Part shown: positions 47 through 14,771 of the stretch, one piece after another | How positions within the stretch are numbered: the first letter of the stretch is position 1 | Layout of the letters: the number at the start of each line of letters is the position of its first letter | Assembly: GCA_965223845.1 (NCBI GenBank) | Contig: CBDCXR010000004.1 | Coordinates: 4,992,001 to 5,056,000 of the forward strand | Source: Planctomycetota bacterium | GTDB lineage: Bacteria > Planctomycetota > UBA8108 > SXIK01 | DNA length: 64,000 nucleotides | Direction of reading: 5' to 3' | Notes under the pieces: model-generated | Seen by the model: the letters and a program-made list of their open reading frames with translations, nothing else | The model's database searches: none | What the model was told of the DNA's origin: nothing | Position numbers and translations under genes: made by a program

Positions 47-3000
47 ATGATCGACAGCGCCGCACCTCGACCGGACGACGACCGGAGCTCGGAAGAACTA
101 GACGTCGACCGCGAACTGTCGTCGCCGGAGTCGCACGATCCGTTCGAAGACATCGCCGAACAGTTTCTCGAGCGCCATCGCCGCGGCGAGTGCCCATCGG
201 TCGAAGAGTACGCCGAGCGCAACCCCGCGCTCGCCGAGCGCATCCGTCGCGTCCTCCCCACTCTGCGCGCCCTCGAGGAACTCGGGCCCGATACTCGGAC
301 GCCCGACGCCGCCCCTCTCGCTCCCGATCCCGAACTCGAGCAGCTCGGCGAGTACCGAATCCTCGGTGAGATCGGACGCGGAGGCATGGGCGTCGTCTAC
401 GAAGCCGAGCAGGAGAGCCTCCGCCGGCGTGTCGCGCTCAAGGTGCTTCCCCGGCGCGCACTCGCCGATCCGGTCGATGCGGATCGCTTCCGTCTCGAGG
501 CCCGCGCGGCCGCTCGCCTCCACCACACGAACATCGTTCCGGTGTTCGCCGTGGGCGAAGCGAGCGGCGTCCACTACTACGCGATGCAGTTCATCCACGG
601 GCAGAGCCTCGCGGAAGTTTTGATCGAACTCCGCCGACTCGGCTCGTCGAGCTCCGGCTCGACCCGCACGGCCGCGACCCGCCTCGCGGAATCTTCGGCG
701 GCGAGCGTCGCGCTCTCGCTCATTCACGGCTCCGTATCGCGACTGGATCGCGGAGTCTCCGACACGAGCGAAGACACCCCTTCCGCCCGGCGCGGCTCCG
801 TCGACACATCGAGCGCTCAGCTCCGCGAGCTCATGGCGTCGGAATCGGAGAGCGGCCCCCGCGCGACCTACCACCGGCGCGCCGCCGGCGTTGCGCTTCA
901 AGTTGCCGAAGCGCTGGCGTACGCACACGCCGAGGGAATCCTCCACCGCGACATCAAGCCGGCGAACATTCTTCTCGATACGCGCGGGAACGCGTGGATC
1001 ACCGACTTCGGTCTCGCGAAGGACGAAGACGCGGGCGACCTCACGGCGTCGGGAAACGTCGTCGGAACTCTGCGCTACATGGCGCCGGAGCGCCTGAACG
1101 GCGAAGCCGACGTGCGGAGCGACGTCTACAGCCTCGGCATGACCCTCTACGAGCTCGTGACGCTCAAGCCGGCGTTCGAGTCCGCCGACCGCGCGCAGAT
1201 CGTTCGCGACATCGCGGAACGAGATCCGATCCGCCCGCGACGGGCCGACTCATCGATTCCGCAGGATCTCGAGACGATCGTTCTCAAGGCGATCGCGAAG
1301 AAGTCGTCCGAACGATACGCAACCGCAGATCGACTCGCCGACGATCTCCGGCGCTTCCTCAACTACGAACCGGTTGCCGCGCGCCGGGCGACGCTGCGCG
1401 TTCGGCTCTGGCGCTGGTGTCAGCGGAACCCGACGGTCGCAACGCTCGCTACAACTTCGGCGCTGCTCCTCGCTGCGCTCGTCATCGGCGCCGTGGCGGC
1501 CAGCTTTCGCCTCAAAGCGGAGCGTGACACCGCGATCGATCGATTGGTCGCCGCCAAGATCGCCGAAGCGCGCGCGTGGCGAAACAGCGATTCGCCCCAC
1601 CGCCGGCGGCGAGCGCTCGAAGCCGTGCGCGAGGTCGTCGCCGTCAGGCGTTCGGCCGAAGTTCGCAACGAAGCGATCGGTGCGCTCGCGATCGTCGACC
1701 TCGATCGCGGCGAGGAGAGCGCGGTCGACGGAACGTGCCGGTTCGATCCCACATCTTCGCTCGGCGTCCGCGCGATGGGCGACGGGAGCGTTCTCGTCTT
1801 CCGCGGCCTCGATCCGACGCCGATCGCAATCCTTCGGGGAGGGAAGGGCTCGGTCGACGACGTGCGCGTCAGTCGCTCCGAACGATGGCTCGCCGTCGTC
1901 GCGTACGATCGGGAAGTCGCGACGGTTTGGGACCTAGAGAGCGAGAGCCCCGTACTCGAGCTCCCCTGTCGCAAATACACCGCGCCGATCGCGTTCCATC
2001 CGTCCGACGACGCCATCTTCGTTCAGACGCCGGACCGCGAGTTGGTCGGGCTCGCGCTTCCCGAGGGAGCCGAGCTCCGGCGCTCGTCGTTTCTTTCGCG
2101 GTTCGACTATGCGCGCATCGATCCTAGCGGTCGGTTCATCGCGCTGTCCGCCGGCAGCTCGAACGCGGTCGACGTTCTCATCGTGAACCTCGATACGGGC
2201 GAGCCGACCGCGTCGCTTTACCATCCCGCGCAGACGAATCAGGTCGCTTGGCATCCGGACGGCGAGACGCTCGCGGTGGCGTGCCACGACTACAACGTGC
2301 ACGTGTGGCGCCCGTTCGAGCAGCGCCGCATCGGAGTCCTTCGCGGACACTCCGCTGAGGTGCTCCGCGTCGCCTACAGCGGAGGGGGCGGATTCCTCGC
2401 GTCTTCGGGGTGGGACGGCCGCACCGTCCTTTGGGACACGCTGAGCGCGAGCGCGCTCTCCGTCACGCTCGGGACATTCAGCGCATTCGGCGCGGACGAT
2501 CGCGAGATTCTCTACGTCCGCCGAGATGCGCTCGGCAGCTGGCGCGTGCAGAACGCGGGTGTCTACCGGCGACTCGCGGTCGATTTCCTCGGAGGAAAGG
2601 GGCCGTTCGATATCGCCTTTTCGCCGGACGGGCGCTGGATCGCGGCGGCGGCCGAGTTGGGCGGAGCGGCGATCTGGAGCGTCGAGGATCCCTCGATTCG
2701 CGCTTCGATTCAGCCGGGTCGGGTCCGAAGCATCGAGTTTCATCCCACTCGCCCCGAGCTCTGGACGGCGGGCGATCGCGGCCTTCTCCGCTGGAAGATT
2801 CGTCCCGGAGTCGACGACGGTCGCTGGACGTTCGGTCCCGCGGAGTCCGCCGGACTTCGAGTGACGAAATTTGCGCTGCATCGGGGCGGGACCCTTCTCG
2901 GAGCGATCCACGACTCCGGTGCCCGCGGAACGGAAGCGGGGATCTACGAGCTCCGCGGTGAGAAGCTCCGAGAACGCTTCCGCGTTCGCCACGCGCGAGT

Positions 3001-4399
3001 GAACTATCTCGCATTCGATAACGCGGGGGAACGATTCGCGACGTCGACGTGGCAGGGGGAAGACGTTTACGTGTGGGATGCGAACGAAGGCCGCCGCCTC
3101 AAGACCCTCCCCGCGGGTTCAACGCGAGTTGCGTGGGGCGCAGACGATCGCTGGCTCGTCATCGGCGTCGACCGCACCCTTCTCGTCTACGACACGCAAT
3201 CCTGGAGCGTCGTTCATCGCGTGGAGCGCCAGCGGCGTAGCGGTCCGGTCGCGTTCAGCGCTGACGGCGAGACGCTCGTCACGTTCGGAGGCGAGAATCG
3301 CCTGGAGCTGCACTCCGTCGGGGACTGGAGCTCGTTCGCCCGGCTCGAGGCGCCCGGCGGGATCCTCGACCTCACGGACGTTCGTTTCTCCCTCGACGGG
3401 CGATTCATCGCCGCCGCTTCTCCGTCGAACGCGATCGATATCTGGGATCTCACACGCCTTCGTGAGGAGCTCGCGCCGCTCGGGGTCGATTGGGACGGCG
3501 AGCGTCTTCCATCGACGACCGACCGAGCGCCGCCGCGATCGATCGCAGTCGAATACGTCGAAGCCCCTCGCCGCTCGATCGCTTCGCCGAGCGAGCGGCA
3601 CGCCCGCCTCGCGGATCTCTTCACTCGCATCCTCTCGCTACGAAACGATGTCGACGTCGTGGGAAAGCGCGCGGCAATCGCCTGGCAGCTCGGCCGCAAC
3701 GACTCGGCGCTGCTCGACTGGACGCGAGCGATCGACCGCCGTCCGAGCGACCTCACACTCGTTCTCCAGCTCGGAAAGTTCTTTCTCGACGTGGGTCACG
3801 CGCGCGAGGCCGCGGAGTACATGGATCAGGCGCTCGCGCTCGCCGAATCCGGACGCGGCACGGCGGATCTATCGCGCGAAGCCGAGAGGGGAGTGTTCGG
3901 CACGATTCACTGGCTGAGGGCTCGCGCCCGACGCTTGCTCGAGGATCGAGCGGGCGCGCGACGCGACTGCGAACGCGTCATCGAATTCGTTCCGGGCCAT
4001 CCCGAAGCGATCTTACTCGCCGCGTGGCTCTGGGCGCTCGAGCCGGCGGCGGGCGACTCGGAGCGCCTCGCGCGCACTCGGGCCAAGACGGGAACGCGGT
4101 TTCATGGACGGATGCACCAAGCGGCTCTCGCGACATCGGCAGTCGCCGTGCTCACCGGCAGCCCCGATGATGCGATCGGCTGGCTCGAACGGGTAACGGA
4201 TCGAGGTGAGGACGGCGCGGCGAAGTCCTACATCCTCGCGATCGCGTACGCGAAAAAAGGCGACCTCGCCGCGGCGGACGAACACGGCCGAGAGGCGAGA
4301 CGCCGAGCGGAGAAGCTCAAATCGCTCGCAGAATGGAAACAGAGCGAGCTCGCGCTCCTCCGCGGGATCGCGGAGCGCGAGCTCGCAGCGGCGCGGTGA
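47..4399 (+). CDS. Membrane Ser/Thr protein kinase with WD40 beta-propeller repeats and C-terminal TPRs
   Basis: Hanks motifs [45 protein letters not shown] segment ([17 protein letters not shown]). Many WD40-like repeats (AFSPDG...W, GHSAEV...LWD) and a helical TPR-like tail. The N-terminal '[19 protein letters not shown]' helix is typical of planctomycete kinases. Confidence 0.93.
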
Positions 4400-4402
4400 C
4401 GA

Positions 4403-6595
4403 TCACTCCGCCGCGCATGCCGCCGGTGAGGAAGCACAATCCACGCCGTCGTCCGTCGGATCGATTCCGCACTGATTCATTCCGGGTGCCGGAACCGTGC
4501 CGAAGCCCGAAAAGAGGACGTTCAGGGTCAAGATCGGATCCGAGATGTCGACGCGTCCGTCGTCGTTCGTATCACACGCGTCTCTGCAGCCCGGCTCCCC
4601 GCCGATCGAGAACAGCATTCCGAGGACCGAGAGGACGTCGGAGATATCGACGGAGCGGTCGCTGTTGCAATCTCCGCGCGTGAAGAGAGGGTCGGTCGAC
4701 TTCGATTCGCTTTCGTGTCTCCCGACTCTGGCGGCATCGTGCGCGGCGCGGACGAGCGACCGCGCGAGCCCTCCGTCGATCGTACCGATTCTCATCTGCC
4801 GCTCGACTTCAAGGATGAAAAGACCGACGAGCTCATCGCCGCGTTCTGCGTCTTCGTCTTCGTAGGCGGCGGCTGCCGACAGAATGAAACCGGCCATCGT
4901 CTCTCGTTCGGCGACGCTCACGTCGACGAGCAGACGAACTTCGCTCGCTAGATTGCGAGCGAGCAGCCCGATCCGAAACGGGGCCGTCTTCGCGATCCAT
5001 CCCTCCCATGTTCCGGGTGCGGTCGTTCGATCGGGATCCGGGCGAACGGCGTCGTCGGTCGTCGGGAAGTTCGACGACCAGGTAAATCCGCCGAGCCACG
5101 CCGTGTCGCCCTCTGGGTTCACCGCGATGGAGAAACCGGCATCGCGCGGACCGGCGATGAGAAGGCCTCCCTCACCACCCCCGAGAAAGCTCGAGTGGAG
5201 GAGCGTGCGGCCGGTCGGTGAGACGACGGCGACGAACGCGTCGCTGTCGTCACCTTCGAGAGTCTCCTGAAAAGGTGCCTCGGTGATGAAATCCTTCGAT
5301 CTTGTCCAGCCCGTCACCCACACTCGGTCCAGTCGATCGACCGCGATGGCGCGCGCTTCATCGTGCTGGTTTCCTCCGAGATACGTCGCCCAATCGAATT
5401 CGTCGGAGCTCGGATTCCATCGTCCGACCCACGCGGCGCTGAAGGAACTCTGTTCCTCCCCGTGGCATTCGCACCGAGGCTGAGCCGCATCCGACGACAC
5501 GGGAAAGTCGCTCGATTGAGTCGCCCCCGCCACGTAGAGCGAGTTCGACCGCCCGAACTCGACGGCGAGGATCTCATCGGCGTACGAACCGCCGATAACG
5601 TCGACGTCGATGATGCTTTTCAGACCCGGAGCCGAGAGGTCGATCTCCATGATCCACGCGTCCCGTCCCCCTTTCGGCGGGAGATTCCCTCCCGGCGCGG
5701 GAAACCCGTCGGAGTGGATCACCGAAGTCCCGCCGATCCAAAGGCGATCGTTCCGGTCGACGGCGACGTCGTGCGCCCGGTCGTCCGCGCTTCCGCCGAG
5801 ATAGCCCGACGAGATCAAGTGGCGCCCGTCGGGTGAGATCATCGCGACGAAAGCGTCGTGGATTCCCCCGTTGTACGTAAAGTCGGGACCGAACTCCGTA
5901 AGCTGAAAATCGCCCGACGTGTATCCGACGACGATGATCCGATCGCGCGAGTCGACCGCGACCGCCTTCGGCTCGTCGTCCTCGCAGCCGCCGAGGTACG
6001 TCGCGAACTCGAGACTGCCGCCGTCCCTTGCGAGCTTTGCGACGAATGCGTCGACGTTGCCCTCATCGTCAGGACAGTCGCCGCCTCCGTGCTCCGCGGG
6101 AAACGAGCTCGTCGCGGGAAAGTCGCGCGAGTTCGTCGTCCCGAGCACGATCAGGTCGCCGCTCCTCGAGAACGCGAGATCGACCGCGGCGTCGTCTCCC
6201 GACCCACCGAGGTAGCTCACCCACTCGACCCGGCGACCCGTCGAGTCGAGCTTCATGACAAATGCATCGGTCGCCGGCTCCCCACTCGCGGTTCCGCACG
6301 TGCCGTCGAGCCCGCAGCCGCGGTCGTACTCGTAGCCTTGAACCGGGAGGTCGGGAGAGCTGGTCAGTCCGGCGAGATAGACCGCGCCTTCCGAGTCGAC
6401 GAGGACGGCTTCTACCGTATCGCCACCGGTACCGCCGATGTGAGTTGCGTATTCGAGGTCGACGTTCGCGTCGAGCGACGAGTGAGACGTCCCCGCCGCG
6501 GTGACGAGCGCCGCGACGAGAATCCAGTGAGCACGGCGAGAACGCGGCAGAGGACGACTTCGGGTGAAACGCAGCTCGAATCTGAGGCGACGCAT
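4403..6595 (-). CDS. Secreted SBBP/beta-propeller repeat protein with a small helical (FIMAH-like) domain and C-terminal dockerin-like domain
   Basis: Signal peptide; repeated 'Y(L/I)GG..D....(I/V)AVD....(V/I)..G.T.S.DFP' and 'DAFV.KL' units; C-terminal FTRGDCNSDRSVDISD...CDTNDDGRVDISDP...CGIDPTDD. Confidence 0.85.
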   Translation of the reverse strand: MRRLRFELRFTRSRPLPRSRRAHWILVAALVTAAGTSHSSLDANVDLEYATHIGGTGGDTVEAVLVDSEGAVYLAGLTSSPDLPVQGYEYDRGCGLDGTCGTASGEPATDAFVMKLDSTGRRVEWVSYLGGSGDDAAVDLAFSRSGDLIVLGTTNSRDFPATSSFPAEHGGGDCPDDEGNVDAFVAKLARDGGSLEFATYLGGCEDDEPKAVAVDSRDRIIVVGYTSGDFQLTEFGPDFTYNGGIHDAFVAMISPDGRHLISSGYLGGSADDRAHDVAVDRNDRLWIGGTSVIHSDGFPAPGGNLPPKGGRDAWIMEIDLSAPGLKSIIDVDVIGGSYADEILAVEFGRSNSLYVAGATQSSDFPVSSDAAQPRCECHGEEQSSFSAAWVGRWNPSSDEFDWATYLGGNQHDEARAIAVDRLDRVWVTGWTRSKDFITEAPFQETLEGDDSDAFVAVVSPTGRTLLHSSFLGGGEGGLLIAGPRDAGFSIAVNPEGDTAWLGGFTWSSNFPTTDDAVRPDPDRTTAPGTWEGWIAKTAPFRIGLLARNLASEVRLLVDVSVAERETMAGFILSAAAAYEDEDAERGDELVGLFILEVERQMRIGTIDGGLARSLVRAAHDAARVGRHESESKSTDPLFTRGDCNSDRSVDISDVLSVLGMLFSIGGEPGCRDACDTNDDGRVDISDPILTLNVLFSGFGTVPAPGMNQCGIDPTDDGVDCASSPAACAAE

Positions 6596-9153: not shown

Positions 9154-11235
9154 TCACCGCCCGAGCATCTCCGAAAAGCGATGGATCGCGGGCTCGAGCT
9201 CCTGTCGATCGGTGAGAACGGCGGCGAACAGCTCGCCGCGATGCGCGATGCGCCGTGCCATCGTCTCGAGGCTGAAGTCTTCGCGCCGGAGCTTCGAGTC
9301 GAGCTCGTCCCACTCGAGCGGCGCGGACACCGTCGCCGCCTCGACCGGCCGGACGACGTACGGCGGCACGACCGTCTGCCCGCGGCGGTTCTGCAGGTAG
9401 TCGATGTACACCTTGCCCCCGCGACGGGCCTTCACTCGCTCGACCGTACAGAGATCGCTTCGCTCGGAGGCTATGTGCCGCGCGACGCCTTCGGCGAACA
9501 TCCGCGTCTGCTCGTAGGAATAGCGCGCGACGAGCGGAACGAACACATGGACTCCGCTCGCGCCCGACGTCTTCACGTACGGCCTGAGTCCGATCCCACG
9601 CAGCACTCGACCGACGCGCTGAGCGACTCGGACGACGAGCGAAAACTCGGCACCGTTGGGATCGAGGTCGAACACGATCCAGTCCGGCACATCGAGGCTG
9701 CCGACGCTCGACAGCCACGGGTGAAGATCGATGCTGCCGAGATTGACGAGGTACGCGAGCGTCTCGCGATCGTCGCACACCGGATATCGCACCGGCTCGC
9801 CGTCCGCGTCGATGACGGTCTCCGTACGAACCCACACGGGCGCCGTGTCGGGGAGATTGTGGTGATAGAACGACTTTCCGTCGATCCCGTCCGGAAAGCG
9901 CCGGAGGTGACAAGGGCGACCCCGAAGGTGCGGGAGGAGCGCGTCGGCGACATCGTGGTAATAGTCGAGAAGATCTCCCTTCGTGCATCCGCGCGAAGGA
10001 AAATAGATTTTCTGTCGATGCGTGAATCGAACGCGACCGAACTCGCTCTTGCGAGTACCCGAAGCAGCGCGGAGAACGTCGAGGGCGCTTCCCGAGATCG
10101 GCTCTCGACCGGGAAGCTCGATGCGTCGCCACGTCGGCGATGTACCGTGCACGTACGGACTCGCCGCGCATTTCGCGATCACGCCGCCGAGCCCGGCGGT
10201 TGCGACCGATCGAGCGAAGGATCCACCCTCGGCGCGCACCGACTCGACGAACGAGATCGCCCGCGAGCGGGGTACGATCGATCGGAGGATCTGCCGTCGT
10301 TCATAGAGGGTCAGCTTCTCGACGTTCCACCGGTCGTACTGAACGATGTCGAAAGCGCAGAGGGTGAGTTCATCTCCCGTGTCCTCGGCGAGCCTCCGTT
10401 CGAGTCGAGCACGCGAGGGGCGGGAGTCGTCGTCGAGGCACACGAGGACTCCGTCGAGAGCCGCAGTCCGTGCGCGCAGCTTTCGCAGCGAAGCGAGAAC
10501 GGAGTCGGTCTTTCCTTCGACCGCGCGGCCGCTCGAGTCGCGAAGTCGCACGTCCTCGCCGCGCTTGAGCGCAGAAACTCGCATGCCGGCGAACTCAATC
10601 TCGAAGAGCCACTCGTGATCCGTGAACGGGGGCGTCGTCGCTTCGGGCTCCATGGGAACCAGCCGCCGCGGGAACTCGCGCGCAGGAGCGCGCCCGAAGT
10701 CGACCCCGAATGGATACGGCGGATCATCGGCGTCGCGCTCGTAGACATCGCGCCCCTTGATGAGAAGCCACTCCTTGGGATTCCTCGAGGTACGAACGAG
10801 ATGCCACTCGCCGCGGAGACGCTCACCGTCGAACTCGACGACGAGCTTGCCCGCGTCGGCGCCCTCCTCCACCGTGCCTCCTTCGAGCACGCGGTAGACG
10901 CCCTTGTCCCAAATCGTCATCGTTCCGGCGCCGTACTCGCCCTCGGGAATCACGCCGTCGAAGTCGACGTATTCGATGGGATGGTCTTCCGTGCGAACCG
11001 CGAGCCGCTTGTCTTCGCGTGAGTAGCTGAATCCGCGCGGGACGGCCCACGACTTCAGCACCCCACCGGATTCGAGGCGGAGATCGTAGTGGACGTGCGT
11101 CGCTTCGTGGCGATGGACGACGAAGACCTGCGCCTCCGAAGTGGCGCGCGTCGCTCGAGAGCCGGTCCGAGCACTCGGCTCGGGCGTCTTTCGAAAATCC
11201 CGCTTTCGCCGATATTCACTGAGGTCGTCGGACAT
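9154..11235 (-). CDS. ligD: LigD-like NHEJ protein: 3'-phosphoesterase + degenerate ligase (NTase) domain + AEP polymerase
   Basis: PE domain: LSEYRRKRDF..TPEP, HEATHVHYDLRLE, SWAVP, EDHPIEY. POL domain: FDLDP, KTSG..GVH, YIDYLQN..GQT..PY..R. The middle domain aligns to ligase motifs but reads EIEFAGMR instead of ExKxDGxR. Start at MSDDLSEY (11235). Confidence 0.92.
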   Translation of the reverse strand: MSDDLSEYRRKRDFRKTPEPSARTGSRATRATSEAQVFVVHRHEATHVHYDLRLESGGVLKSWAVPRGFSYSREDKRLAVRTEDHPIEYVDFDGVIPEGEYGAGTMTIWDKGVYRVLEGGTVEEGADAGKLVVEFDGERLRGEWHLVRTSRNPKEWLLIKGRDVYERDADDPPYPFGVDFGRAPAREFPRRLVPMEPEATTPPFTDHEWLFEIEFAGMRVSALKRGEDVRLRDSSGRAVEGKTDSVLASLRKLRARTAALDGVLVCLDDDSRPSRARLERRLAEDTGDELTLCAFDIVQYDRWNVEKLTLYERRQILRSIVPRSRAISFVESVRAEGGSFARSVATAGLGGVIAKCAASPYVHGTSPTWRRIELPGREPISGSALDVLRAASGTRKSEFGRVRFTHRQKIYFPSRGCTKGDLLDYYHDVADALLPHLRGRPCHLRRFPDGIDGKSFYHHNLPDTAPVWVRTETVIDADGEPVRYPVCDDRETLAYLVNLGSIDLHPWLSSVGSLDVPDWIVFDLDPNGAEFSLVVRVAQRVGRVLRGIGLRPYVKTSGASGVHVFVPLVARYSYEQTRMFAEGVARHIASERSDLCTVERVKARRGGKVYIDYLQNRRGQTVVPPYVVRPVEAATVSAPLEWDELDSKLRREDFSLETMARRIAHRGELFAAVLTDRQELEPAIHRFSEMLGR

Positions 11236-11528
11236 CCGGTTCGCTCTCCCTCGAGTCACCGCGAACGATCGTACCGCGGAACCGGCCGGAACGAGCCCCC
11301 GCCGCTCCACGAGTTATCGGACGCAGTGCGGCCACTCTCGTTCACTTCACCGAGATTCACACAACGCGCGGGGGGTCACCGGCCGATATTCCCGTCCAGG
11401 AACCGAACCACGCGAAGCTAGCGGGCGCAAAATTGTTAGAGGCCCTCGCACCGAGCGGGTAGGTTCGAATCGGTCGGGCGCACGACGCGCGAAACCTCAG
11501 GACGCCAGCGAGAGAGAGGGTTTCCAAT

Positions 11529-12422
11529 ATGGCTCCGCGTTCGAGCTGGAAGGGATTCATCCGGCTCAGTCTCGTCTCGATCCCCGTAAAGGCGTACACC
11601 GCGAATGCGACGGGATCCGAGATTCGGCTGAATCAACTGCACCGCGACTGCAACAGCCCGATCAAGTACCGCAAGGTCTGCCCAGCGCACGGTGAGCTCG
11701 ACGCCGAGTCGATCGTCTCCGGCTACCAGTACTCGAAGGGCCAGTACGTCGTCATCGATCCGAAGGAGATCGAGCAGCTCCGCACGGAGAGCGACAAGGC
11801 GATTGCGATCGACGGCTTCGTCGAGCGCGGCGCGATCGACGCGCGTTACTTCGCGGGCAAGAATCACTACCTCGTTCCCGATGGGCCCGTCGGGCAGAAG
11901 GCGTACGTGCTCCTTCAGAGAGTGATGGACGAAAAGGGGCTCCACGCGATCGCTCAGGTGGTTCTCTCCGGCAAGGAACAACTCGTCGCACTCCGCACGG
12001 TTGGACGGCTCCTCGTGATGACCGGACTCTCGTACGAGAGTCAAGTGAAGCGGCCCGATCTCTTCGAGGACGAAGTCGTCGACGTCGACGTCTCTCGCGA
12101 CGAGCTCAAGCTGACCGAGAACCTCGTCGACGCGACCACGTTCGCCGAGCTCGATCTCGCGAAGTACAAGGACGTCTACGTCGAGAAGTTGACCCAGCTC
12201 ATCGAGGCGAAGGTCGAAGGGAAAGAGATCGTCGCCGCGCCGGACACTGAAGAGCCCAAGGTGATCGAGCTCATGGAGGCCCTGAAGCGAAGCGTCGCGG
12301 ACGCGGCGGCGCAGACGCCGGCCGGAGGCACACCGGCGAAGAAGTCCAAGGCGAAGAAGAAGATGGCGCCGAGCGCCGGCTCAAAGCGGCAAGCCGCGAA
12401 GAAGAAGCGAAAGACGAGCTGA
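11529..12422 (+). CDS. ku: Ku protein (non-homologous end joining)
   Basis: R.SWKGFIRLSLVSIPVK, QLHRDC...CPAHG bridge, GYQYSKGQYVVI, IAIDGFV, VIELMEALKRS, Lys-rich C-terminal tail. Confidence 0.96.
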   Translation: MAPRSSWKGFIRLSLVSIPVKAYTANATGSEIRLNQLHRDCNSPIKYRKVCPAHGELDAESIVSGYQYSKGQYVVIDPKEIEQLRTESDKAIAIDGFVERGAIDARYFAGKNHYLVPDGPVGQKAYVLLQRVMDEKGLHAIAQVVLSGKEQLVALRTVGRLLVMTGLSYESQVKRPDLFEDEVVDVDVSRDELKLTENLVDATTFAELDLAKYKDVYVEKLTQLIEAKVEGKEIVAAPDTEEPKVIELMEALKRSVADAAAQTPAGGTPAKKSKAKKKMAPSAGSKRQAAKKKRKTS

Positions 12423-12512
12423 TGCGGCGCTGCGATTCCGAGGTCGGACGCGAGCCACTCGCGCGCGGCCACGCCGTTTGACGTCCGAACGAAGATCGAT
12501 CGACTGCCGCCG

Positions 12513-13430
12513 ATGTCCGCGCGGGAATCTCTCCCATCGTTCGTTCCTCCGATGCTCGCCTCTTCCGGCGAGCCCTTCGACGGTGAAGATTGGTTCTTCG
12601 AGGTCAAGTGGGATGGAATGCGCGCGCTCGCCTTCGTCGAAACCGACTCCGTTCGGATCGTGAACCGGCAGCGGCGCGACGCCACGCTGCGCTATCCGGA
12701 GCTCGCTCCGTTCTGCGAGCTGCCGCCGGGATCCGTCATCGACGGCGAAATCGTCGTCTTGCGGAGCGGGAAACCCGATTTCGAGCGTCTCGTCTCGCGC
12801 GAGCAGGCTCGCTCCGCCCGGCGCGCGCGAATCGCCGCCCAAACGAATCCGGCGACGTTCATCGCGTTCGATCTCCTCTACGAGAAGTTCGTTCCGATCC
12901 AGTCGCGAGCACTCCGCGAACGACGCGAGCGGCTTCGTACCCTGCTCGAGAGCGCGAAGGTCGATCCCGTAGTGCTCTCCGATGGAGTGGAGGCAGAAGG
13001 CCGAGCGTTCTTCGACGGAGTCTGCGAACGCGGCCTCGAAGGTGTCGTCGCGAAGCGACTCGAGAGCCGTTACACGCCGGGAGTCCGCAGTCCGCACTGG
13101 ATCAAGATCAAGCGCCGCCACCAGCTCTGTTGTGCGGTGATCGGCTACCTGGCCGAAGGCGACGATGTGAGGAGTCTCGTCATCGCAGCGGACACCGACG
13201 GCGGACTCGCGTACGTCGGACGCGTCGGCAGCGGGATCGACGAAGCCACGCGCGCTCGGCTCCTCGAGGAGCTCGCGCGCCGCCCGGCCGAGCAGCCGAT
13301 CGTCGAGTGCCCGATCGCGGCGCGCTGGGTCGCTCCGGGCGTCTACTGTACCGTCGATTACCTCGAGATCAGCAAGAGCGGAAAGCTGCGGGGGCCGGTG
13401 TTTCGCTCACTCGTCATCGACGGCGATTGA
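12513..13430 (+). CDS. Stand-alone ATP-dependent DNA ligase (LigD ligase-domain / LigC-like, NTase+OB)
   Basis: Intact motifs: PMLA, EVKWDGMRA (I), DGEIVV (III), FDLL (IIIa), EGVVAKR (IV), WIKIK (V); OB fold VGRVGSG...LRGPVF. Confidence 0.93.
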   Translation: MSARESLPSFVPPMLASSGEPFDGEDWFFEVKWDGMRALAFVETDSVRIVNRQRRDATLRYPELAPFCELPPGSVIDGEIVVLRSGKPDFERLVSREQARSARRARIAAQTNPATFIAFDLLYEKFVPIQSRALRERRERLRTLLESAKVDPVVLSDGVEAEGRAFFDGVCERGLEGVVAKRLESRYTPGVRSPHWIKIKRRHQLCCAVIGYLAEGDDVRSLVIAADTDGGLAYVGRVGSGIDEATRARLLEELARRPAEQPIVECPIAARWVAPGVYCTVDYLEISKSGKLRGPVFRSLVIDGD

Positions 13431-13559
13431 GGGGAACGAGTCGGAGAGTTCCCGCGCGAGAGTTGCAAAACCGACGACGAGGTTCCAGGCTCTCCCGTAC
13501 GAAAAGTGCGGCCGGGGGGACCGACCGCAGGCTCGAATCGGGTGACGGCAGCGGAGACG

Positions 13560-14771
13560 ATGAAAGACTACGTCCCGGTCGAAAGGCGGCTCGCCGGCCT
13601 CGAGTTCGCATTCACCGGCCGACTGGCGTCGATGACGCAATCCGAAGCCGAGCGCGTCGTCGTGGCGCACGGTGGGCGTTGCGTTCAGCTCCCCGGCCGA
13701 CGGACTCGATTCCTCGTCGTAGGGGGAGAGGGTCCGCCCATCGGACGCGACGGCAACGTCAGCCGAAAACTCTCTCGCGCACGCGAGCTCGAGGCGGAGG
13801 GACTCTCGATCGAGATCCTTCCCGAAACCGAATTCCTGCGGAAGCTCGATCTCGAGAGCCGCGATGAACGCGTCCGCCAACTCTTTACGACCGCTCAGAT
13901 CACGAGGCTCCTGGGCGTTCCTCGCGACACCGTGCGACGGTGGGTTCGCCTCGGCATCCTGCGTCCGGCGGTAACCGTCCACCGTCTCGCGTACTTCGAG
14001 TTCGCGCAAGTAGCGAGCGCGCGGGCCCTCTGCGCGCTCCTTCAAGAGAATGTCCCGCTTCACCGGATTCGCCGGAGCCTCGAACAGCTGCGCGACTGGA
14101 TGCCCGACATAGAGAACCCGCTCGCGCAATTGAGCCTCCTCCACCACGATCGAGAGCTCCTCCTTCGTCTCGAGTCGGGAGACATCGCGGACACGAGCGG
14201 TCAGCTCTATTTCCCGTTCGACGAATTTCAACCCGGCGATCATTCGCCATCGTCCTCGCCGCGAGACGCGGAACGATCCCGTCGCGCCGAGCAGATCCTC
14301 ACGCCGATCGGTCCGGCGGCCGCGGGCCAGAGCGATTTCGAGCGCGGTCTCGCTCGCGAGGACGTCGGTGACCTCGACGGTGCGGCTGCCGCGTACGAAG
14401 AAGCGCTGACCGCGGGGGGCGCGAAACCGGAGGTTCACTTCAACCTCGGAAACGTGCGCTACGAGCAGGGTGATCGCGCCGCCGCGGCCGAACAGTACCG
14501 TGCGGCGCTCGAGCTCGATCCCGAATACGTAGAGACTTGGAACAATCTCGGAAACACGCTTTCGGAGTTGGGACGAACCGCAGAGGCCGTAGTCGCGTAC
14601 CGCGAAGCCCTCCGACTCGCGCCCGAGTACGCCGACGTTCATTTCAATCTCGCGGAGCTTCTCTACGAAAGCGGTGACGACGCTGAGGCACGGTCTCACT
14701 GGCGCACGTACCTCCGCTACGATCAACACAGCGAATGGGCCGCTCTGGCTCGACGGCGGCTCGAGGAGTGA
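13560..14771 (+). CDS. BRCT domain - MerR-like HTH - TPR protein
   Basis: BRCT: LAGLEFAFTGRLASMTQSEA..VV.AHGG......TRFLVVG...KL.RA.EL...IEILPE.EF. HTH: FTTAQITRLLGVPRDTVRRWVRLGIL. TPRs: VHFNLGNV, TWNNLGNTL, VHFNLAELL. GGAG RBS before ATG 13560. Confidence 0.88.
   Translation: MKDYVPVERRLAGLEFAFTGRLASMTQSEAERVVVAHGGRCVQLPGRRTRFLVVGGEGPPIGRDGNVSRKLSRARELEAEGLSIEILPETEFLRKLDLESRDERVRQLFTTAQITRLLGVPRDTVRRWVRLGILRPAVTVHRLAYFEFAQVASARALCALLQENVPLHRIRRSLEQLRDWMPDIENPLAQLSLLHHDRELLLRLESGDIADTSGQLYFPFDEFQPGDHSPSSSPRDAERSRRAEQILTPIGPAAAGQSDFERGLAREDVGDLDGAAAAYEEALTAGGAKPEVHFNLGNVRYEQGDRAAAAEQYRAALELDPEYVETWNNLGNTLSELGRTAEAVVAYREALRLAPEYADVHFNLAELLYESGDDAEARSHWRTYLRYDQHSEWAALARRRLEE

Follow-up and report, generated by a model that had tools for sequence, protein, structure and literature searches.

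How many proteins do bacteria require for non-homologous end-joining (NHEJ)? In its canonical form, as in Mycobacterium tuberculosis, Pseudomonas aeruginosa and Bacillus subtilis, the pathway comprises a Ku homodimer and the multidomain protein LigD, and it is this pair, Ku plus LigD, that teaching and engineering uses such as genome editing take the bacterial pathway to be. The question is raised anew by a locus at positions 9154..14771 of a 64,000-nucleotide stretch of a Planctomycetota genome (the whole stretch is called the window here; the genome, 91.7% complete, comprises 4 contigs with a total of 7.9 Mb). Here, a LigD-like gene on the minus strand diverges from a plus-strand row of ku, a stand-alone ATP-dependent DNA ligase gene and a member of an unnamed family, which we call X, whose product joins BRCT, MerR-type winged helix-turn-helix and tetratricopeptide repeat (TPR) domains. 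Our comparisons indicate that this locus is probably a conserved variant of the bacterial Ku/LigD cluster in which the work is divided among four proteins. Within it, a division of labor between a LigD with a dead ligase domain and a separate ligase is highly likely, and a functional tie of X to NHEJ is likely as well; a physical action of X at DNA ends, as opposed to a regulatory one, has in our judgment slightly less than an even chance.

The middle domain of LigD and the ligase next to ku

The LigD-like gene (9154..11235, minus strand; 693 aa) is resolved by Pfam and NCBIfam models into a 3'-phosphoesterase (PE) domain, a dead remnant of a ligase nucleotidyltransferase (NTase) domain and a primase-polymerase (POL) domain. 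Its open frame (9154-11310, minus strand) extends over 718 codons to a GTG at 11310, and the likely start is an ATG at 11235, given that the corresponding public protein has 693 aa. A Pfam scan of the full frame recovers PE (1.9e-39) and LigD_Prim-Pol (2.9e-87), and both of these domains look intact. The PE domain (10741..11223, minus strand; residues 30-190 of the 718-aa frame) passes TIGR02777 (198.4 against a cut-off of 144), aligns to 2lj6_A ('Probable ATP-dependent DNA ligase'; E 2.2e-45) and retains the H-x-H-Y-D-x-R-L-E signature; the His/Asp/Arg motif of PE domains is metal-binding. The POL domain (9211..10035, minus strand) passes TIGR02778 (247.1 against 214.7) and matches 5dmu_A, an 'NHEJ Polymerase' (E 1.1e-55), with FDLDP, KTSGxxGxH and DYLQN retained; its D-x-D and SGxxGxH motifs are present as FDLDP and KTSGASGVH, which align to 5dmu, 6sa0 and 2iru.

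The domain between them (10126..10647, minus strand) is an NTase-fold remnant that has lost its catalytic residues and has no OB domain after it. Its match to DNA_ligase_A_M is weak (38.7 bits against a cut-off of 26.2) and restricted to residues 230-394, and the protein as a whole stays below the full-length LigD cut-offs (TIGR02776, 344 against 373.2; NF004628, 525.6 against 895; NF007210, 460.3 against 989). In a BLASTP comparison the remnant shares 30% identity with the neighboring ligase (E 2e-14), and the lysine of KWDG in the latter lies opposite the glutamate of EFAG in the former. Thus, in the nomenclature of the covalent nucleotidyltransferase family (motifs I-VI), motif I reads E-I-E-F-A-G-M-R in LigD against E-V-K-W-D-G-M-R in the ligase. 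Motif III has further changed from DGE to DGV, motif IV from EGxxAK to GGxxAK and motif V from WxKxK to WRRIE; Pfam finds no PF04679 match, that is, no OB domain with motif VI, after the remnant, and only about 30-50 poorly conserved residues separate it from POL. What is retained is motif IIIa (FDLL-like) and the lysine of motif IV. The alignments accordingly leave LigD with neither a canonical adenylation site nor an OB domain, and we infer from the residue losses that it would be unable to adenylate itself or to seal a nick.

The gene for the stand-alone ATP-dependent DNA ligase (12513..13430, plus strand; 305 aa, NTase plus OB) lies between ku and X and presents the reverse picture. It encodes a ligase of the LigD-LIG type, which passes TIGR02779 narrowly (score 228.5, cut-off 227.75), can be aligned over its full length with the ligase domain of M. 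tuberculosis LigD (1vs0; E 7.1e-32) and has motifs I, III, IIIa, IV, V and VI all intact; it falls far under the cut-off of NF006078/PRK08224 (144.5 against 296), which we take to be the LigC-type ligase model. The ku gene (11529..12422, plus strand) encodes a protein of 297 aa with a lysine-rich C-terminal tail, well recognized by TIGR02772 (248.8 against a cut-off of 150) and by Pfam Ku (3.3e-42). The ligD/ku/lig/X locus holds every such domain that we found across the whole genome, namely a single Ku, a single POL domain and two ATP-ligase domains, so that besides the LigD remnant the stand-alone ligase is the sole ATP-ligase domain of the genome. Because its motifs are intact and it is the only other such domain, sealing would be carried out by this 305-aa ligase.

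An earlier note on this DNA, made from the sequence alone, had described a ligD gene on the minus strand diverging from ku, a ligase gene and a BRCT/HTH/TPR gene on the plus strand. All four genes are where it put them, and the ligD-ku intergenic region, which it gave as about 290 nt, measures 293 nt (11236..11528). Its label of 'pseudoligase' for the middle domain of LigD is borne out by EFAG in place of KWDG at motif I, and its suggestion that end-processing stays in LigD agrees with the motifs retained in PE and POL. It had also proposed that sealing was outsourced to a separate ligase, which fits well with a LigD missing the lysine of motif I, the glutamates of motifs III and IV, the lysines of motif V and the OB domain, next to a protein that has them all.

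Conservation of the split arrangement

We assembled ligase domains from three sources, namely relatives in the same class, the loci of a one-genome-per-species scan for X, and the ku regions of the Ku-positive genomes in a 301-genome sample of the phylum. Fourteen LigDs proved to be of the dead type (G000, G003, G021, G025, G037, G072, G083, G102, G118, G191, G215, G216, G246 and L048, the last on a Spirochaetaceae-labelled contig). In all 14, the motif I lysine is replaced and the motif III glutamate is gone (DGE to DGV or DAV), and none retains the motif IV glutamate, the motif V lysines, the OB domain or motif VI. Every one of the 14 comes from a genome or contig that carries ku-lig-X. On the other side stand 18 ku-adjacent LigDs that are intact in every motif and 12 further Acidobacteriota LigDs that are likewise intact; the motif I lysine is kept in all 30, and no stand-alone ligase lies in the fetched ku cluster of any of them (0/18 and 0/12, hence 0/30). 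The stand-alone ligases for their part retain motifs I-VI in all 21 cases examined.

A maximum-likelihood tree of the ligase-like domains (53 rows, unrooted, leaving out the partial ligase L069 and three duplicates of twice-fetched loci) gathers the dead domains in one split and the stand-alone ligases in another, each with a Shimodaira-Hasegawa-like approximate likelihood-ratio (SH-aLRT) support of 100. The tree is consistent with a single origin of the split arrangement, whatever the order of events. The orientation of LigD varies, being divergent from ku in G000, G021, G025, G037 and G102, and convergent, downstream of X, in G072, G083, G118, G191, G215, G216, G246 and L048; in G003 it lies 5 Mb distant from ku-lig-X. 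Judged by these sequences, the split is conserved and no one-off decay, and the arrangement is inherited as a unit.

The gene-order counts run in the same direction. Ku is present in 8 of 41 class relatives, and ku-lig-X is contiguous in 7 of these 8; in the remaining genome, G017, Ku is weak and located at the end of a contig, and X gave no match. Among the seven loci fetched around X homologs of the class relatives, six show the order ku-lig-X. In the wider sample of the phylum, Ku occurs in 39 of 301 genomes, with ku-lig-X in 12 of the 39 and ku-X without an intervening ligase in a further 8 of the 39; a pseudo-LigD lies within the same fetched stretch in 11 of the 12 ku-lig-X loci. The earlier note had called for a survey of Ku neighborhoods across Planctomycetota, to be decided by whether the ligase and the BRCT-TPR gene are conserved beside Ku, and conserved they are (7/8 and 12/39). 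Its picture of a re-partitioned four-gene module needs amending. The module does recur across the phylum, but X is not special to it, since X also accompanies intact LigDs, exists in a form without the BRCT domain and occurs in genomes without Ku. We find it best to regard the module as a ligD/ku/X cluster of wide occurrence that has acquired a ligase gene in the position between ku and X.

Even though the middle domain of LigD has lost its catalytic residues, it has not drifted freely. Across the 14 pseudo-LigDs, mean pairwise identity is 0.43 in the dead domain, as compared with 0.18 in the linker that follows it, 0.60 in PE and 0.57 in POL, and 40 of the 174 dead-domain positions are conserved in at least 12 of the 14 proteins. 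We infer that the domain is maintained under selection. A word-indexed search with the pseudo-ligase region returned 9 proteins and missed known relatives, and is no gauge of the size of the family.

A few of these loci have peculiarities of their own. One Planctomycetota locus (L128, from G118; positions 2357-4546) has about 2.2 kb extra between the stand-alone ligase and X and is otherwise a typical ku-lig-X/pseudo-LigD module. Two contigs labelled as Spirochaetia or Spirochaetaceae (L046 and L048) both carry ku-lig-X, with a convergent pseudo-LigD in L048, and their ligases nest in the Planctomycetota stand-alone clade, which suggests either transfer of the whole module or mis-binning. Likewise, ku-lig-X is found in two loci labelled 'uncultured Alcaligenaceae' (L042 and L073), the X of which groups with Planctomycetota in the tree; probably these bins are mislabelled or chimeric, or the cluster has been transferred.

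Gene X and its linkage to ku

Gene X (13560..14771, plus strand) encodes 403 aa; its open frame is 13506-14771 (plus strand), and 13560 is the likely start because the public protein has 403 aa. An AlphaFold2 model built on a 46-sequence alignment (mean predicted local distance difference test score, pLDDT, 85) divides the protein into a predicted BRCT domain (residues 15-95; 13602..13844, plus strand), a winged helix (residues 109-162) continued by a helix and a small beta-meander to residue 211 (residues 109-211 together, 13884..14192, plus strand), a disordered linker (222-251) and a TPR domain (259-402; 14334..14765, plus strand), the last recognized by many Pfam TPR families. The BRCT domain scores 24.3 against the Pfam cut-off of 21.3. 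The solved chains closest to it in sequence are the BRCT domain of LigA (9vse_A, 4.4e-5) and that of RFC1 (2ebu, 8.9e-4; 2k6g, 1.1e-3), and of its T-G motif, G20 is invariant in 46/46 sequences and T49 is kept in at least 90%.

The winged helix is a clear MerR_1 match (4.8e-10; 39.8 against a cut-off of 21.6). Folded alone, the middle domain gives a model with pLDDT 88, in which VIA-align recovers DNA-bound TipAL-N at Z 9.3 with a root-mean-square deviation (rmsd) of 1.4 over 69 residues, in agreement with Foldseek, and TnrA, GlnR, SoxR, BmrR and RacA at Z 8-9. The models of X contain no long antiparallel dimerising coiled-coil helix; the predicted post-wing helices have 14-15 residues and are followed by the beta-meander. 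For the latter, no structural match stood out among those listed in searches with the model of the middle domain, and we make no claim of a new fold. Foldseek matches the TPR domain to consensus TPR and to the TPR of OGT, and a fold search with the whole model returned TPR proteins only. The only names given to the family in public records are 'TPR repeat protein' and 'MerR regulator'. When searched with a profile made from the middle domain, it amounts to 1,634 cluster representatives if the threshold is E <= 1e-10, and to 184 if it is E <= 1e-30; the proteins thus found are either about 390 aa long, with the domain placed after an N-terminal part of about 100 residues, or about 300 aa long and without that part.

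How closely X keeps company with Ku can be gauged in two phyla. In the Planctomycetota sample, 22 of the 39 genomes with Ku and 16 of the 262 without it contain X, counted where the MerR part was covered; in 20 of the 39, X lies no more than 4 kb downstream of ku. Among 201 Acidobacteriota genomes, 74 have Ku and 62 have the core of X, which is distributed over 52 of the 74 Ku-positive and 10 of the 127 Ku-negative genomes. A hand comparison of coordinate tables places X within about 1 kb of ku in 35 of the 74, downstream on the same strand in 34 and divergent in one (G452); when three unpublished genomes (G352, G377 and G480) are set aside, the linkage stands at 32/71. All 20 published Acidobacteriota loci that were fetched show ku followed by a BRCT-less X, with an intact LigD that is divergent in 11, co-directional in one, about 6 kb away and cut in one, and outside the stretch in seven.

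The one-genome-per-species scan, which used a 4-sequence alignment of X (a set of 8 sequences had no sufficiently conserved stretch), yielded 41 full-length X loci. In 23 of them, X is accompanied by Ku and/or a ligase or LigD, and in 7 the flanks are too short for a judgment. The linked X genes carry six phylum labels (Planctomycetota, Acidobacteriota, Verrucomicrobiota, Spirochaetota, Gemmatimonadota and Pseudomonadota) and come in five gene orders (ku-X, ku-lig-X, ku-LigD-X, ku-X-LigD and LigD-ku-X). Members linked to Ku occur all over the tree of X, in which the 38 scored rows require at least 8 changes. No second recurrent partner, serine hydroxymethyltransferase (SHMT) aside, was found among the 58 open reading frames of 12 Ku-unlinked loci or in 8 loci of a Ku-poor family considered below. 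The order ligD, ku, X, xth is found on pSymB of Sinorhizobium meliloti, where X is annotated as a 'tetratricopeptide repeat protein' and ku was seen by tblastn, the gene table being incomplete there. According to part of the text of PMC6379672, ku2 and ligD2 constitute the main end-joining pathway of this organism. After X on this replicon (L166, CP073680.1; 7063-8488) come about 650 unannotated nucleotides and then the gene for exodeoxyribonuclease III (xth).

The Ku proteins encoded beside X share a basic tail (window 12300-12422; alignment A6; loci L035-L073 and L109-L145), which has the form K-[MLP]-A-[PAE]-S ... KKK[ST]G or, where the proteins come from Acidobacteriota and Verrucomicrobiota, K-x-K-A-G. 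Many Kus that are not accompanied by X do not have such a tail, but they also belong to more distant Ku types; the tail is a suggestive candidate for a ligand of the TPR domain and for a marker of linkage to X, confounded as it is by Ku phylogeny.

No conserved palindrome was found in four aligned ligD-ku spacers, and the spacer of the window yielded no sigma-70-like site and no Rfam family; terminator-like sites are no commoner than in shuffled sequences. Upstream of ku in 37 X-linked loci, a crude search for shared 8-mers returned GC-rich words only, with a maximum of 7/37, and an equally crude one for shared inverted-repeat arms reached at most 2/37, a search in which operators that differ between phyla may escape. 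A short CCGATAT / GACGATAT word recurs in three of the four aligned spacers (window 11350-11400; L024 and L026) and is too short to interpret.

Some members of the X family stand apart. In a Planctomycetaceae-labelled locus (L071:7001-8149), the X that follows ku fails to align across the MerR part in a frameshift-like manner, and may represent an assembly error or a decaying copy. Another genome, in which Ku was not found, has two tandem X-family genes (G112:C4:217152-219158).

Possible roles of X and the place of the cluster among end-joining systems

How might the four proteins share the work? Members of the Ku family bind DNA ends, and Ku would do so here, with LigD healing and filling the ends through its intact PE and POL domains and the free 305-aa ligase sealing them. 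The dead ligase fold might serve as a spacer or a docking module. X, in the mechanism that we favor, could be a scaffold that binds DNA or DNA ends, with its LigA/RFC1-type BRCT and MerR-type winged helix holding DNA and its TPR domain holding a peptide of a partner, for example the conserved basic tail of Ku, the ligase or LigD, and so couple Ku to the separated enzymes; BRCT domains of the RFC1 class bind 5'-phosphate DNA ends. On a wider view, which we put forward only tentatively, NHEJ in Planctomycetota, Acidobacteriota, Verrucomicrobiota, some Spirochaetota and rhizobia would not be a two-protein affair, and X would be its dedicated non-catalytic third subunit, an end-bridging or recruiting scaffold and a counterpart of XRCC4, XLF and XRCC1. 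It would bind DNA via the winged helix, joined in some lineages by a 5'-phosphate-sensing BRCT, and would clamp the Ku tail or the ligase via TPR. The same tentative view holds that the presence of such a scaffold let one lineage lose the ligase domain of LigD, the dead domain surviving as a docking module.

A number of observations weigh against these readings, the four-protein division of work included. The BRCT domain is absent from 7 of the 20 Ku-adjacent Planctomycetota X genes and from the Acidobacteriota form, and since it is missing in many lineages, the core function cannot be end recognition via BRCT. Transcription factors typically have the MerR fold, and a homolog bears the name 'DNA-binding transcriptional MerR regulator'. 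X also occurs apart from Ku: 11 of the 41 loci of the species scan have neither Ku nor a ligase in the fetched flanks, their neighbors being heterogeneous, and in one Planctomycetota family X is present in 15/15 genomes and Ku in 3/15, with X situated among housekeeping genes and, in 4 of 8 loci, next to SHMT. Any role of the dead domain, be it structural, in spacing or in docking of DNA or a partner, is a guess. As for the pairing of a dead LigD with a free ligase, seven stand-alone ligases (L035, L040, L042, L046, L066, L073 and G319) have no assignable LigD state, lying on short contigs or on stretches without LigD, and no LigD was found with our query in G007 and G014, the genomes of which are 89% and 85% complete. 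Moreover, kin share gene order by descent, so that the counts overstate the independence of the loci.

The main rival to the scaffold reading is that X is a MerR-type transcription factor, which turns on or off the operon of ku, or else a broader regulon for stress or damage, and takes no part in the repair reaction, its TPR and BRCT being sensor or partner domains. The winged helix matches promoter-bound MerR-family domains (TipAL, BmrR, SoxR, CueR and EcmrR) at Z 6.8-9.3, as it does Pfam MerR_1 (4.8e-10), regulators are often encoded beside their targets, and the persistence of X in Ku-less genomes would fit a wider regulon; ku2 of S. meliloti is moreover stress-induced according to part of PMC6379672. 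Yet the same fold is found in the non-regulators RacA (5i41) and CbpM (3ucs) and in a plasmid partition protein (8csh), the predicted structures of X show no long dimerising coiled-coil helix of the classical kind, and its BRCT is of the LigA/RFC1 type. In nearly every linked locus the gene itself follows ku, downstream and in the same orientation, with G452 as the only divergent case, and the admittedly crude tests on 37 loci and four spacers brought up no common operator-like motif upstream of ku. On balance we regard a purely regulatory X as somewhat unlikely. A general role of X in DNA metabolism or in the nucleoid, its place after ku being inherited without functional coupling, could account for its presence without Ku in 16 of 262 Planctomycetota and 10 of 127 Acidobacteriota Ku-negative genomes and for its housekeeping neighbors in Ku-less ones. 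It is nonetheless improbable in the face of a linkage that extends across six phylum labels and several gene orders, of the enrichment of X in Ku-positive genomes (52/74 against 10/127 and 22/39 against 16/262), of the spread of Ku-linked members over the whole X tree and of the failure to find any other recurrent X neighborhood.

A different objection concerns LigD, the middle domain of which might still be active through another nucleophile, with the neighboring ligase a LigC-type back-up for excision repair. Such back-up ligases do exist in other bacteria, as set out in part of PMC5663958, the middle domain still passes the Pfam cut-off (38.7, with 26.2 required), and motif IIIa and the motif IV lysine are in place. 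We consider this very improbable nevertheless. Four NTase motifs have lost their key residues in 14/14 proteins, from which the OB domain and motif VI are also absent; and the ligase scores best with the LigD ligase-domain model TIGR02779 (228.5), is far under the NF006078 cut-off, lies always between ku and X and never occurs together with an intact LigD in the clusters examined (0/30). The reading that we prefer remains that of a LigD confined to end-processing, served by a separate ligase, with X as a further partner of Ku.

Like canonical NHEJ, the cluster brings together Ku, PE, POL and a ligase of the LigD type, with PE and POL aligning to solved LigD domains, and its PE-x-POL domain order matches that of Pseudomonas-type LigD. 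It differs in that the ligase domain of its LigD is dead and without OB, the active ligase is a separate gene, and X accompanies ku. Split NHEJ systems are known as well, as in the archaeal Methanocella. Genes for a separate ligase, polymerase and nuclease near ku are described for S. coelicolor and A. fulgidus in part of PMC1378119, and a 'nonconventional NHEJ' class is defined in part of PMC7719229. The window shares with such split sets the placement of sealing and end-processing on different polypeptides by ku, and the best solved match of its POL is the stand-alone 5dmu; unlike in fully split NHEJ, where Ku, ligase, polymerase and phosphoesterase are separate, its PE and POL are fused, with a conserved dead ligase fold between them. 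The mycobacterial LigC/Prim-PolC system, as part of PMC5663958 describes it, resembles the cluster in having an extra stand-alone ATP-dependent ligase besides LigD. In contrast to LigC, however, the ligase of the window is of the LigD-LIG type, replaces a dead domain rather than backing up a live one and lies between ku and X.

For X, a parallel may be drawn with the BRCT scaffolds of eukaryotes, namely XRCC4/XLF with the BRCTs of Lig4, XRCC1, and the BRCT of Pol lambda/mu, in that a non-catalytic BRCT protein might likewise tie Ku-bound ends to separate enzymes. The analogy has its bounds, as only the BRCT fold is shared, and the MerR-type winged helix and TPR of X are absent from those scaffolds. 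As compared with LigA and RFC1, X carries its BRCT at the N terminus of a protein that is not an enzyme, and many members of the family do without this domain. With the MerR-family domains, including those of RacA, BldC, GlnR/TnrA and CbpM, X shares the winged-helix fold (Z 8-9.3, rmsd 1.4-2.9, 67-81 residues), but it has no long dimerising coiled coil; a beta-meander follows instead, and BRCT and TPR flank the domain.

In the openly accessible literature (subscription-only papers being outside the scope of the search), we found no paper linking a BRCT, MerR or TPR protein to bacterial Ku, and no report of a LigD with a conserved dead ligase fold paired with a free ligase. Neither 'BRCT' nor 'TPR' occurs in the main texts of PMC7719229, PMC11936186 and PMC6379672 (the supplements being outside this scope), and the main text of the last makes no mention of an X-type gene after S. 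meliloti ku2. Separate NHEJ genes for ligase, polymerase and nuclease are already known, and what appears to be new is a dead-fold LigD obligatorily paired with a free ligase; X is a plausible new NHEJ component.

These observations imply that bacterial 'two-protein' NHEJ probably has more parts. A clade of LigDs that carries the name 'DNA ligase D' in databases cannot, to go by its residues, be expected to ligate; because Pfam still detects the ligase domain, surveys based on domain counts would score such a dead LigD as a complete three-domain 'conventional' one, and a transplanted Ku/LigD pair of the dead type would not be expected to seal without the neighboring ligase. The pseudo-LigD likewise provides a clean example from nature of how a multidomain repair enzyme can retain a pseudoenzyme domain. 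The X family, for its part, sits beside ku in approximately half of the sampled Ku-positive genomes of two large phyla of soil and water, and its presence behind ligD2-ku2 in S. meliloti, where end-joining assays exist, makes the question of a further subunit or regulator directly testable.

Several minor features concern the surroundings of these genes. The window locus is flanked by genes for an SBBP-repeat protein, a transglutaminase-like protein and a metallo-beta-lactamase (MBL)-like protein; we rejected these as parts of the module, as they were not found beside the cluster in relatives. In two Terriglobia-labelled loci with no nearby Ku (L049:7956-9209 and L072:5418-6488), X is followed by a gene for a class I S-adenosylmethionine (SAM)-dependent methyltransferase. 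Finally, five Planctomycetota loci (L125, L139, L143, L144 and L145, from G205, G117, G093, G245 and G303) contain tandem ku-ku pairs without X, which recall the Ku3-Ku4 operon of S. meliloti, the products of which are proposed in part of PMC6379672 to form heterodimers.

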